Below, piece by piece: positions 32,600 to 36,412 of a DNA stretch of 64,000 bases. The first letter of the stretch is position 1. Each line of letters opens with the position of its first letter. The notes below the pieces were generated by a model. It did not search any database, was not told the DNA's origin, and saw only the letters and a list, made by a program, of their open reading frames with translations. Made by a program: the position numbers and the translations under genes. The stretch comes from Deltaproteobacteria bacterium (GTDB taxonomy: Bacteria > Myxococcota_A > Polyangia > Polyangiales > Houyiibacteriaceae). The stretch spans positions 142,014-206,013 of the forward strand of contig JAEPMI010000004.1 of assembly GCA_017644045.1 (NCBI GenBank), given 5' to 3'.

Positions 32600-34435
32600 A
32601 TGAAGACGTTCGCGATCGTGATGGGTGTGATGCTGGCTCTGACCGGCTGCAATGAATCGGGTCCCGGCTCGGACGACACCCTCTTCCCGCCCGACGGTGG
32701 CCCCGACCCCCGCACGACCCGGGACCTCGGCCCGAACCCCACGCCGGCCTACCCCTCCACGCCCGAGTACGTGCAGCACCCGACCTCGGTCGGCGCGGCC
32801 TCGGTGCTTCGGACCGCCGCGGGTGACGCGGCCGTGGTCACGGACCCCTACCGCGACCGCATCTACGTCACCACCCCCGGCCTCGGTGACGAGGTCGCCG
32901 TCATCGACCTCGCGGCCGGCGACGAGCCGGGTGCGCTGGTGGAGGACGCCGCCGGCCGAGTGCACGTCGCGCTCCGACGCGGTGGCGCCCTCGTCACGCT
33001 GGCGGCCGACCTCCGTTCGGTCGCCGAGCGGCGCCCGGTGTGCCCTGCACCCCGCGGCGTCGCGCACGACCCCGCGTCCGACCAGATCCTCGTCGCGTGC
33101 AGCGGCGGTGACCTCGTCCGCTTCCCGGCCGAGGGCGGCGCCGAGGTCGACCGGGTCTTCGTCGACGGCGACCTCCGCGACGTCATCGTCACCGAGAGCG
33201 CGACCTACGTGACCCGCTTCCGGAGCGCGGAGCTGATCACCCTCGACGACGCGGGCGCGATCGTCGAGCGCCGTGCGCCGCTCAGCGCCACCGTCAACGC
33301 ACGACCCGCGCCCACCAGCATCCTCCCGAACGTGGCTTGGAAGACCCTCGCGCTGCCCGGCGGTGACCTGGTGATGCTCCACCAGCGATCGGTGTCGAGC
33401 CCCATCGACGTCGACCCGAGGACGGGCGGCGGCTACTCGGGTGAGAGCATCGCGCCGGGCTGCGCCACCAGCGTGGTCCAGACCTCGCTCACCCGCTTCC
33501 CGCCCACGGGCATCGCAGAGCTGAGACCCGGGCCCGTCCTCCAGGGCGTGGCTCTCGCGGTGGACATGGCGCTCCTCGAGGACGACCGTCTCGTGATCGC
33601 GACCGGTGGCTCCGGTGCCGAGACCACCCACGTGTTCCCGCTGAGCGCGGCGACCAGCTCGAGCCCGACCGACTGCCTCGACCCGCTCGCTCGAGTTCCG
33701 GGCGGCGAAGCGGTCGCGGCGGACGGCGCCGAGGTCCTCATCTACCAGCGCGAGCCCGGCATGCTCAGCCGGTGGGACGCGAGCCCCTTCCAGAACATGC
33801 CCCGCATGTGGCTCGACCAGGAGCGGAGCATCGTGGACCTCGGTCACCTGAAGTTCCACGAGGTCACGGGCGTGGGGATCGCGTGCGCGTCCTGCCACCC
33901 AGAGGGCAGCGAGGACGGTCACACCTGGGAGTTCCAGGGCACCGATCCTCGGCGCACTCAGAGCCTCCTCGGCGGCATCCTCTCCACGGTGCCCTTCCAC
34001 TGGAGCGGTGACCAAGCCGACCTCCGCGCGATCATGACCGCGACCTTCGAGGAGCGGATGCGTGGTGGCCCGGTCTCCGACGGCGAGCTGCGCCTGCTCG
34101 GCGACTGGATGGACGCCCAGCCGTCCATCCCCGCACCGGAGACCGATCCCTCGCGGATCGAGGCCGGTCACGAGGCGTTCGTCGCCGCCGGCTGCGCGGA
34201 CTGCCACTCCGGCGACCAGGGCACCAACAACGAGTCGGTCGAGCTCGAGGGCTTCGGCGCCATTCAGGTCCCGATGCTCGTCGGCGTCTCCCACCGGAGC
34301 CCCTGGCTCCACGATGGCTGCGCCCAGAGTCTCGAGGAGACCTTCGACGGCGCGTGCATCCCCGAGCACGCCCCCGCGTCCCCGCTCGAAGAGGGCGAGT
34401 CGCAAGCCATCGTCGACTACCTGCGGTCGCTCTGA
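32600..34435 (+). CDS. lipoprotein with a beta-propeller-like N-terminal region and a di-haem cytochrome c peroxidase/MauG-like C-terminal domain
   Basis: Internal Met MKTFAIVMGVMLALTGC (lipobox) of ORF 32396..34435. Two CxxCH haem motifs (CASCH, CADCH), with FHWSGD and SPWLHDG blocks typical of the CCP/MauG family. Confidence 0.8.
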   Translation: MKTFAIVMGVMLALTGCNESGPGSDDTLFPPDGGPDPRTTRDLGPNPTPAYPSTPEYVQHPTSVGAASVLRTAAGDAAVVTDPYRDRIYVTTPGLGDEVAVIDLAAGDEPGALVEDAAGRVHVALRRGGALVTLAADLRSVAERRPVCPAPRGVAHDPASDQILVACSGGDLVRFPAEGGAEVDRVFVDGDLRDVIVTESATYVTRFRSAELITLDDAGAIVERRAPLSATVNARPAPTSILPNVAWKTLALPGGDLVMLHQRSVSSPIDVDPRTGGGYSGESIAPGCATSVVQTSLTRFPPTGIAELRPGPVLQGVALAVDMALLEDDRLVIATGGSGAETTHVFPLSAATSSSPTDCLDPLARVPGGEAVAADGAEVLIYQREPGMLSRWDASPFQNMPRMWLDQERSIVDLGHLKFHEVTGVGIACASCHPEGSEDGHTWEFQGTDPRRTQSLLGGILSTVPFHWSGDQADLRAIMTATFEERMRGGPVSDGELRLLGDWMDAQPSIPAPETDPSRIEAGHEAFVAAGCADCHSGDQGTNNESVELEGFGAIQVPMLVGVSHRSPWLHDGCAQSLEETFDGACIPEHAPASPLEEGESQAIVDYLRSL

Positions 34436-34437
34436 TC

Positions 34438-35253
34438 GTGCGGCTCGTGGTCGTCGCCTGTCTCGCCGCCACATGGGCGAGCTGTGGTGGTGACTCCGAT
34501 GGGCTCGGCGACGCCGCCGCGGACGCAGCGCCCGATGCCCCACTCGAGCGGGACATGGGCGACCCGTGCACCGACCGGGACGGAGACGGGATCCCCGATC
34601 GCTTCGAGGGGACCAGCGACGACGATGAGGACGGAATCCCGAACGACGAGGATCGCGACTCGGACGGCGACGGCATCCTCGACGAAGTCGAGGCGGGTGA
34701 GCTCGCCGACTGCGACTTCCCTCCGCAGGACACCGACTTCGACGGGTGGCCCGACTACCTGGACGACGACTCCGATGGCGACGGGCTGCCCGACGCCGAC
34801 GAACGCGAGCGCGGTTTCGACCCCACGCACGGCGACACGGACCGCGACGGATGCCCGGACCCCGCCGAGCTCTTCGACGGCGCGTGTGACGATCCGCGCA
34901 ACGCGTTCGTGCTGGTCGAGTGCGGCGTGCCCACCGGCGGCACGGCCACGTTCGTCTGGGAGGGCGACGAGCCCCTGCCGAGGGCGAGACTCACGGTGAC
35001 GCTGGATTCCCCGGAGGCCGGGGCCGGTATGGGGGCGCCTCAGGCGGTGACCCCCGCCGGAGCGGCCAGCATCGCGGACTTCGAGTTCAACGACGTTCAG
35101 CCTGGAGCCCAGCTGACCTTTGGCATCGCGCTCCGCATCTCGGAGCCGATGGCGACCGGTACGCTCGAGCTCGAGGATGGCGCGGGCCTCACGATCGACA
35201 CCGGCCGGCTCTACGTCTTCAGCCACGACAACTGCATGCCCCTGGTGATCTGA
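34438..35253 (+). CDS. thrombospondin type-3 repeat (Ca-binding) lipoprotein, paralog B
   Basis: Part of ORF 34354..35253. GTG 34438 lies 2 nt after the upstream stop and gives VRLVVVACLAATWASC (lipobox). DxDxDG repeats. The C-terminal end resembles gene 30302..31129. Confidence 0.8.
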   Translation: MRLVVVACLAATWASCGGDSDGLGDAAADAAPDAPLERDMGDPCTDRDGDGIPDRFEGTSDDDEDGIPNDEDRDSDGDGILDEVEAGELADCDFPPQDTDFDGWPDYLDDDSDGDGLPDADERERGFDPTHGDTDRDGCPDPAELFDGACDDPRNAFVLVECGVPTGGTATFVWEGDEPLPRARLTVTLDSPEAGAGMGAPQAVTPAGAASIADFEFNDVQPGAQLTFGIALRISEPMATGTLELEDGAGLTIDTGRLYVFSHDNCMPLVI

Positions 35254-35268
35254 ACCAGAACTCTGGTT

Positions 35269-35431
35269 TAGACCGCTCACGGCTTGAAATGGTCCGATGA
35301 TCGGGGTGCTGTGCGGCCGCGGGTCGGTTTCGGCACGACGAGTCGATGCCGAGCATCGGCGAGGAGGGACGGGGCCGACCTGTGGTCGCACAGCCCGCGA
35401 GGGCGGATCAGAGCAAGTCGTGAGCGGTCTA
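35269..35431 (+). other. long nested inverted repeat: candidate structured RNA / 3'UTR element or bidirectional terminator
   Basis: Outer arms 35269-35286 / 35414-35431. Inner arms 35308-35332 / 35370-35394. Apical hairpin 35342-35360. Every non-Watson-Crick position is G opposite T on the plus strand. Confidence 0.55.
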
Positions 35432-36412
35432 GATCTTGCCGCGCATCGACGCCATCGCCTCGGCGAAGGGCACCCGGGGCACCCAGCCGAGCACCTCGCG
35501 TGATTCGTCGAGCGAGTAGCTGGAGCGCCGACTCACGTAGCGAACCGCGCCCGGCGTGAGCGGCGGCGGTCCGATGACTCGCTCGGCCGCCACCGCGACA
35601 CGCGCGGCCGCGAGCGCGAGGGTCTTCGGCATGGACCGGGGCTTCGGGGCGCCGCCGACCTCGGCGAGCGACTCGAAGTAGGTGCGATAGGCGACGCCGT
35701 CGCCACCGTCGTGAAAGGTGAAGATCCCGCCGCCGGCGTCCGGGTGGGCGAGCGCCGCCGCCAGACCGTCGACGAGGTTGTCGATGAAGGCGGGCGCCAT
35801 CCGGCCCGACCCGTCACCGAGGATCACCGGCAGCCCCTGGCGCATCATCTCGAGCGGTCGGACGACCCAGGGATCGCTGCGGGGACCGTAGACGTCACCG
35901 GGACGCACGATGGCCCACTCGATTCGCCGCTCCGCGCGGACCAGCGCTTCGGAGTGGGCCTTGGTGCGGAAGTACGCCGCGCCATGGTGGCCGGCGTCGC
36001 GGTCCGGTCGCGCCGGGTCGAAGCAGAGGGGACTCGCGGCGGTGCACCCGGGCGGCGGATCGATACCGAGCGCCGCGATCGACGAGACCTGGACGAAGCG
36101 CTCGACCTCGTGGGCGGCGGCCACCTCGAGCACGTTGCGGGTGCCCTCGACGTTCACCTTCTGGTGTGCGGCGAGCGGGAGCCGGTCGTCGACGATCGCC
36201 GCCGAGTGGACGACCCGCCGCGGCGCGTAGCGCTCCATCACGGCCGCCACCTCGAGCGGGTCGGTGATGTCCATCCGCACGGTCGGGAAGCGACCGGCCA
36301 GCAGGTCGGTGCCGATCACCGTCGCGCCGTCGGCGAGCAGTCGCTCGATCAGCGCCTCGCCCACGAAGCCCGCGGCACCGGTGACCAGGACGTCGACCGG
36401 TCCTTCAGTCAA
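35429..36412 (-). CDS. NAD-dependent epimerase/dehydratase family protein
   Basis: VLVTGAAGFVGEALIERLL Rossmann motif. The ORF-track start is TTG at 36412 and overlaps the GMC gene stop by 8 nt. Confidence 0.88.
   Translation of the reverse strand: MTEGPVDVLVTGAAGFVGEALIERLLADGATVIGTDLLAGRFPTVRMDITDPLEVAAVMERYAPRRVVHSAAIVDDRLPLAAHQKVNVEGTRNVLEVAAAHEVERFVQVSSIAALGIDPPPGCTAASPLCFDPARPDRDAGHHGAAYFRTKAHSEALVRAERRIEWAIVRPGDVYGPRSDPWVVRPLEMMRQGLPVILGDGSGRMAPAFIDNLVDGLAAALAHPDAGGGIFTFHDGGDGVAYRTYFESLAEVGGAPKPRSMPKTLALAAARVAVAAERVIGPPPLTPGAVRYVSRRSSYSLDESREVLGWVPRVPFAEAMASMRGKI

Follow-up and report, generated by a model that had tools for sequence, protein, structure and literature searches.

A hairpin between convergent genes of a Myxococcota genome is very probably an IS630-type MITE, from a family with copies at stop codons and one-sided G-U mismatches

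The long hairpin at positions 35269-35431 of the window, the window being the whole 64-kb stretch of DNA analysed here, is an insertion when judged by comparison with orthologous loci, and very probably an IS630/Tc1-mariner-type MITE. The element comprises 163 nt and trivial open reading frames only, is non-autonomous and cannot move by itself, and no transposase gene was detected in the 64-kb window by tblastn with an IS630-family transposase. At the sequence level it belongs to a new family, found so far only in Myxococcota, whose mobilisation in trans would depend on a transposase of the type encoded by the insertion sequences (IS) L034 and L044 described below. A full-text literature search returned no report of a bacterial MITE of this type in myxobacteria. 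The kind of element is ordinary, except for the mismatches, which are G-U only throughout the family, and the main points of note are the docking at stop codons and the polarity of the G-U pairs. The first-pass annotation of this region had favoured an RNA under selection and had mentioned a MITE-like element as an alternative; absence from orthologous loci, dispersal in other Myxococcota genomes and an end common to IS630-family IS all speak for this second reading.

The nested hairpin that had been described from the letters alone was recovered with all of its arms. An outer stem (35269-35286 / 35414-35431, 18 bp with one G-T), a second stem (35290-35296 / 35404-35410, 7 bp with one G-T), a central stem (35308-35332 / 35370-35394, 25 bp with six G-T) and an apical stem (35342-35349 / 35353-35360, 8 bp with one G-T) together form a single long nested hairpin over 35269-35431, continuous in the plus-sense RNA fold. 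Folding of 35250-35440 in both senses upheld the strand difference proposed earlier: the plus-sense RNA reaches -130.8 kcal/mol (z -11.3, shuffled mean -77.9, none of 200 shuffles as good) and the minus-sense RNA -90.9 kcal/mol (z -5.9). The same asymmetry appears with DNA parameters (-60.5 kcal/mol for plus vs -44.2 for minus), so that folding alone cannot separate RNA from single-stranded DNA. We take the plus strand, which is the G-U-rich one, as the sense strand of the element, whose limits, including both flanking TA copies, are set by the folds, by the family copies and by its absence in orthologs.

The GACCGCTCACG inverted repeats are flanked by TA dinucleotides in the window, as the first-pass annotation had remarked. 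The left TA (35269-35270) and the right TA (35430-35431), neither assigned to a strand, are the putative two copies of a target-site duplication, since TA is present at all MITE and full-length IS copies and, for the right one, taking out the element with one TA restores an epimerase ending in ...GKI-TAA. Between them lie the left terminal inverted repeat (35271-35296, plus strand), which matches the left inverted repeat (IRL) of the related IS and is conserved in all copies, and the right terminal inverted repeat (35404-35429, minus strand), which is IRL-like too, with CTC replacing AAA at positions 19-21. These repeats are perfect over 13 nt, pair over 18 bp with one G-T, and about 28 nt of them are conserved across copies. 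The interior (35308-35394, plus strand) is specific to the sub-family and consists of the 25-bp central stem with its six G-U pairs and an apical hairpin at 35342-35360. No Rfam 15 family matched, whether the whole window was scanned at the gathering threshold or 35000-35700 at E <= 10, and a scan of 34800-35900 detected no promoter-like or U-tract terminator-like site. The 3' flank of the hairpin reads GATCTTGCC, and the stem is therefore not a canonical intrinsic terminator, as no U-tract follows it.

The element separates two convergent genes. Upstream lies a TSP3-repeat lipoprotein-like gene (34354-35253, plus strand, TGA stop at 35251-35253), whose syntenic orthologs carry PF18884 TSP3_bac, and on the other side an NAD-dependent epimerase/dehydratase (SDR) gene (35429-36412, minus strand; PF01370, E = 4.9e-29), whose closest homologs, where organism-labelled, are from Myxococcota, Polyangiales or Polyangiaceae. 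The right arm of the hairpin does contain the epimerase stop codon, as had been noticed: TAG at 35429-35431 on the minus strand, made of the target TA and the terminal base of the element, and the ortholog L027 ends at the same residue position. A small hairpin AACCAG-aact-CTGGTT, correctly located earlier at 35253-35268 on the plus strand, lies outside the MITE in the ancestral spacer of about 14 nt between the stop codons. It overlaps both ancestral stop codons (TGA, TTA) and has no counterpart at the orthologs or at other MITE copies.

The order GMC oxidoreductase, epimerase, convergent TSP3 lipoprotein and cytochrome-c-peroxidase-like gene is conserved at four syntenic loci, whose epimerases are 84% (L001), 87% (L027), 86% (L026) and 73% (L007) identical to that of the window, and the hairpin is absent from all four. 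The convergent stop codons are 0 nt apart in L001, 12 nt in L027 and 25 nt in L007. The L026 spacer is instead occupied by a hexamer tandem repeat of about 200 nt, (CGGAGT/CGGTGT)n at L026:3846-4048, which is unrelated to the MITE and thus indicates that the tight convergent junction was expanded independently there. The C-termini of both proteins stand at conserved positions in the orthologs (lipoprotein ...PLVI* in the window and ...PVLI* in L001 and L027; epimerase ...MRGKI* in the window and ...MRGKV* in L027). When the element and one TA are removed from the window, the sequence reads ...CTGGTT-TA-GATCTT..., that is AAG ATC TAA on the minus strand, which gives an epimerase with an unchanged protein ending and an ancestral TAA stop (...GKI-TAA). 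After insertion the stop is composed of TA and the element-terminal G, hence TAG. Duplication of TA at this site was assessed by reading-frame reconstruction only, since the orthologs are just 73-87% identical, and we infer that the TA was duplicated upon insertion.

Scanning of one genome per species with the 18-mer TAGACCGCTCACGRCTTG returned 16 loci. About half are isolated matches surrounded by unrelated sequence, as chance predicts, and seven are genuine copies, which belong to two Myxococcota MAGs. The Polyangiales genome OZ245758.1 carries three copies (L011, L013, L019) together with a 38-nt internally deleted remnant (L021), and the Kofleriaceae MAG carries two (L010, L024) and a degenerate one (L015), so the element is dispersed over at least four and at least three sites within these genomes, respectively. 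All complete copies are 161-238 nt long, TA-flanked and folded into full-length hairpins. At both ends the copies have about 28 nt in common (5' TAGACCGCTCACGRCTTGAARTGRTYC..., 3' ...GGATCARAGCAAGKCGTGAGCGGTCTA), and their interiors belong to three unrelated sequence types, each of which folds end to end. As the GC contents of the hosts differ (about 53%, 61% and 70%), the family spans distinct lineages. The L021 remnant (TAGACCGCTCACGACTTGAAGTGGTCGTCCACGGTCTA, L021:3131-3168) consists of both TA-flanked tips and resembles an internal deletion of a full copy; it lies between two convergent ORFs that both use its TAG ends as stops.

The window's own genome has one copy within the 64-kb window, and an inverted-repeat search allowing up to four mismatches over the window and the fetched loci (241 kb) gave no copies beyond those listed. 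A 23-nt pattern had no match in the metagenome collection, and a shorter one retrieved parent-type IS and no MITE copies. Two Logan assemblies with an identical epimerase (L008:10982-11009 and L009:2149-2176) end exactly 28 nt inside the right end of the element; these breaks resemble a branch of the assembly graph and suggest that other copies sharing this end are present in that community. Eight loci (L012, L014, L016, L017, L020, L022, L023 and L025), having neither a partner repeat nor a hairpin, were judged to be chance matches. In three IMG/VR contigs (L041, L042, L043) the exact 18-mer stands in the same context (ctcTAGACCGCTCACGGCTTGAGCGCAAGCC...) and lacks a partner repeat, and this is probably a chance occurrence in a conserved phage gene. 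In Actinomadura sp. GC306 the 13-mer TAGACCGCTCACG occurs twice in inverted orientation, 4.7 kb apart (L018:2116-2133 and L018:6775-6799), one occurrence forming a 25-nt mini-palindrome TAGACCGC-N9-GCGGTCTA. Neither of these two sites has a second inverted-repeat end or a hairpin, and they may represent a remnant, a binding site or a coincidence.

A relaxed pattern identified an IS with the same end on three metagenome contigs (L030, L034, L039). It is about 1001 bp long, with the left inverted repeat TAGACCGCTCACGTCTTGAAGTGATCCG, cTA...TAg flanks and the terminus ...CATTTCAAGGTGAGAGCGATCTA, and downstream of its left end come a Shine-Dalgarno sequence and an ORF starting MISIELRRRIVEAY. An HTH ORF and a DDE ORF are joined at a run of eight A (L030:700-720, also in L034 and L039), which is probably a programmed frameshift site. 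The fused ORF scores 181.5 bits against the IS630 family transposase model NF033545 (NCBIfam, cutoff 100) and also matches DDE_3 (5.5e-35) and HTH_Tnp_IS630. In the L030 copy one nucleotide is deleted near the YSPEFNPIEE motif, and by its sequence this copy is probably inactive. Homologs of this transposase are abundant, one of them, with 74% identity, being encoded in the Myxococcota MAG GCA_039186435.1 by a full-length IS (L044:1131-2134) with the left inverted repeat TAGACCGTTCGCGTCTTGAAGTGATCG and again cTA...TAg flanks.

Positions 1-28 of the window element (35269-35296, including TA) are identical to the L034 left inverted repeat at 25 of 28 positions (89%), a figure that rises to 93% for the L013 copy, and the right end of the MITE matches the same repeat at about 85%; both MITE ends thus resemble the left end of the IS. 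The right-end variant (CTTGCTCTG) is present on none of the IS found, so the direct parent is not among them. No similarity was detected between the interiors of the MITEs and that of the IS, and the MITE is therefore not a simple internal deletion of it. TA flanks all eight MITE copies and five IS copies, with c preceding the left TA at 10 of 13 ends and g following the right TA at 10 of 11. Members of the IS630 family use TA as their target and duplicate it (PMC2170065), and the title of a study cited there (Tenzen & Ohtsubo 1991) states a preference for TA within CTAG. The cTA...TAg flanks, as read from the sequences, match this TA duplication and, as far as that title goes, the CTAG preference (PMC2170065).

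With the genes flanking the relatives' copies called by long ORFs and Pfam, 8 of the 15 element ends examined proved to supply, by their terminal TAG/CTA, the stop codon of the adjacent ORF, and six of these eight ORFs are Pfam-confirmed (epimerase, Hsp70/DnaK, SelO, trypsin-like protease, RibD_C and DUF1963). The full-length IS of L044 shows the same docking pattern, its terminal TAG being the stop of an upstream 822-aa ORF. Reconstruction of the pre-insertion site yielded cTAg in L010, L011 and L021, and in L011 and L021 it yielded two convergent genes sharing overlapping TAG stops; several other copies likewise lie between convergent genes. L013 is an exception, its DnaK side being reconstructed as TAC with no stop. 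The coding flanks of L013 contain a 7-bp inverted repeat, CCGAAGA...TCTTCGG (L013:2675-2694 and L013:2856-2875).

The epimerase stop is kept at the same residue because the element begins with G after TA, so that each end reads TAG outward. Every reading frame meets a stop at the sense 5' end (35269-35300), with TAG at position 1 and TGA at positions 17 and 30. The TGA stops of the left terminal inverted repeat (35271-35296) cover the two frames that the terminal TAG leaves uncovered, and the opposite end has a stop in frame 1 only. Three-frame stops are also present at the left end of the IS (L030:324-372), upstream of its ribosome-binding site. TA is presumably rare outside stop codons in these GC-rich genomes, and outward-reading TAG ends would make insertions into stop codons nearly harmless, which would make these the insertions that persist.

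The first-pass annotation had stated that all the mismatches it checked in the hairpin, eight in total, are G-U on the plus strand; the direction is right, and the count in the fold is nine. The minimum-energy fold of the plus-sense RNA has these nine G-U pairs and no A-C mismatches, and that of the minus-sense RNA has one G-U pair; aligning one arm against the other gives ten G-U-type differences and no A-C-type ones. The asymmetry recurs in the relatives, with ratios of G-U pairs in the sense and antisense strands of 9:1 in the window, 7:1 in L013 and L011, 6:1 in L010 and 10:2 in L024, or about 22:3 for the three independent sub-families combined. The G-U-rich strand is always the one with ...CTTGAAATG at its 5' end, and the polarity is identical in all copies; in the other sub-families it was predicted from the window by this end marker, which is independent of the G-U counts. 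The intact copies L010 and L024 show six differences at paired positions, of which five are switches between Watson-Crick and G-U pairs and none creates an A-C. The degenerate copy L015 of the same genome has three A-C and seven other disruptions and, taken as a rough neutral control, argues against a pure mutational bias. One change could be polarised against the inverted-repeat consensus, at pair 9/153 in L010, and it is A-to-G, not C-to-T. The orientation of the copies bears no consistent relation to the neighbouring genes, and any selection therefore seems tied to the element lineage and not to each host locus. The earlier argument from G-U asymmetry to selection is thus strengthened by the same polarity in three sub-families with unrelated interiors, and loses its reference to one locus. 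On balance we consider it somewhat probable, from these sequence patterns, that a single-stranded form of one strand, RNA or single-stranded DNA, is under selection.

How far can other explanations account for the hairpin and its asymmetry? A functional RNA evolved in place for the lipoprotein and epimerase genes, be it a 3'UTR regulatory hairpin, a 3'UTR-derived sRNA or a bidirectional terminator, would fit the very stable plus-sense fold, the G-U-only mismatches and the position between convergent genes. It is nevertheless very improbable, given that the hairpin is missing from all four syntenic orthologs, that the same ends are found at unrelated loci of other genomes and on IS630-family IS, and that there is no Rfam match, no U-tract and no promoter-like site; with no conservation in the orthologous intergenic regions, the RNA selected as a locus-specific element of the lipoprotein 3'UTR, as the first-pass annotation had it, finds no support. 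More remote still is a REPIN or REP doublet mobilised by a RAYT, or an IS200/IS605-type palindrome moving as single-stranded DNA, which we regard as scarcely credible. REPINs are hairpin-forming mobile doublets (PMC3116915), and such elements would share the long imperfect hairpin and its strand-specific folding; the perfect 13-nt terminal inverted repeats, the TA flanks and the end homologous to an IS630-family left inverted repeat speak against them, as do the lack of a conserved GTAG-type REP head and of a Y1/HUH transposase linked to any copy. Two further hairpin-forming candidates were rejected, a retron msd for want of a reverse transcriptase gene annotated beside the hairpin, and an integron attC because no GTTRRRY core was seen in the ends and there is no cassette array.

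Two explanations concern the asymmetry itself. It could be a mutational artefact with no structural selection, produced for instance by strand-biased cytosine deamination on the non-template strand, since every G-T pair is derivable from a C-to-T or an A-to-G change in the sense strand and the ancestral state is unclear at most positions. We hold this to be unlikely: a ratio of about 22:3 without transversions in the long stems is far above usual strand biases, at least one polarised change is A-to-G (pair 9/153 in L010), and A-C and transversion mismatches have built up in L015, whose genome also carries L010 and L024. Alternatively, the MITE might fold back on one template strand at replication, its paired ends then serving as a transposase substrate and its copy number being amplified, a fold-back mechanism that has been proposed for eukaryotic MITEs. 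In its favour, the asymmetry persists with DNA parameters (-60.5 vs -44.2 kcal/mol), the polarity is tied to the element and not to the adjoining genes, and the differences between intact copies are G-T-compatible while decay of the dead copy is random, a contrast suggestive of selection as the element propagates. A single-stranded intermediate of this kind is nonetheless decidedly unlikely, as excision of IS630 and ISY100 proceeds through double-strand cleavage with no hairpin intermediate (PMC2170065) and the sample is small, with three sub-families. It must be added that IS630 cut-and-paste transposition uses double-stranded DNA and by itself leaves selection on a single strand unexplained.

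We therefore return to the IS630-type MITE and propose the following scenario for it. The ends of the element (about 28-34 nt) are the predicted binding sites of an IS630-family transposase encoded outside the window. Cut-and-paste insertion would have occurred into the TA of the ancestral TAA of the epimerase gene, in the convergent spacer of about 14 nt, with duplication of the TA, and the terminal G after TA would have recreated the stop as TAG, leaving the length of the epimerase unchanged. The selected single-stranded form would most likely be RNA read through from the flanking genes; at the converging 3' ends the stem-loop could block or terminate this read-through or undergo RNase III processing, and either effect would keep gene-end insertions tolerable. 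That the hairpin acts specifically as an RNA terminator or processing site is a tentative suggestion. Equally speculative is a broader proposal, in which the full-length hairpin would be the element's own adaptation and not the debris of decay: Myxococcota lineages of IS630-type MITEs may have been selected to keep one defined strand foldable, G-U/G-T being tolerated and A-C not, with the fold serving either as a two-way transcription block, which together with the TAG ends would allow harmless docking in the CTAG-overlapping stops of convergent genes, or as folded single-strand DNA, a substrate for copy-number amplification. If true, this would be evidence, taken directly from sequence, that the success of bacterial MITEs is affected by single-strand structure.

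For annotation, the appropriate label of the intergenic hairpin is mobile repeat, not candidate riboswitch or sRNA, and its MITE identity also accounts for short-read assembly breaks at this spot. The findings add an undescribed IS630-derived MITE family in Myxococcota, in which TA/CTAG targeting and outward TAG ends would steer insertions into the stop codons of very GC-rich genomes with proteins left unchanged, and the family-wide G-U asymmetry is a testable hint of a selected single-strand structure in bacterial MITEs.

The element does not appear to be a sequence member of ERIC, Correia, RUP, Stowaway or the Coxiella QMITEs, and its likeness to each of these is partial. Stowaway MITEs of plants, which are Tc1/mariner-dependent, duplicate TA, fold over their whole length and rely on mariner-like transposases. 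The element resembles them in its putative TA duplication and whole-length fold, but Stowaway is eukaryotic, and to our knowledge its hairpin transcripts feed small-RNA pathways missing from bacteria. ERIC (127 bp, enterobacteria) and Correia/NEMIS (Neisseria) likewise measure 100-200 bp and have TA termini; they duplicate TA, as the present element putatively does. Both are transcribed into long stem-loops, and reported effects on adjacent mRNAs are RNase III cleavage in the case of Correia and orientation-dependent mRNA stability in that of ERIC (PMC2229807, PMC2759123). The likeness is one of organisation only, as far as the lack of an Rfam match shows; the ends derive from a different IS group, the hosts of the present family are high-GC Myxococcota, and insertion at the stop codons of convergent genes is prominent in it. 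The RNA hairpins predicted for QMITE1 and QMITE2 of Coxiella are very stable, some of the copies give rise to sRNAs, and some have inserted at the 3' ends of genes, where they alter or supply stop codons (PMC5896051); these elements are, however, different families with different target-site features, and protein length is extended there and unchanged here. The closest systems are IS630, ISY100 and their MITEs, such as RUP of Streptococcus pneumoniae, with which the element has in common the terminal inverted repeats, the insertion at TA with its putative duplication and the cTAg bias (PMC2170065). Its end is homologous to that of an IS with a DDE_3/HTH_Tnp_IS630 transposase frameshifted at an A-run, and, unlike in the IS630 and ISY100 systems, its interior, which is unrelated to the IS, is palindromic over its full length.
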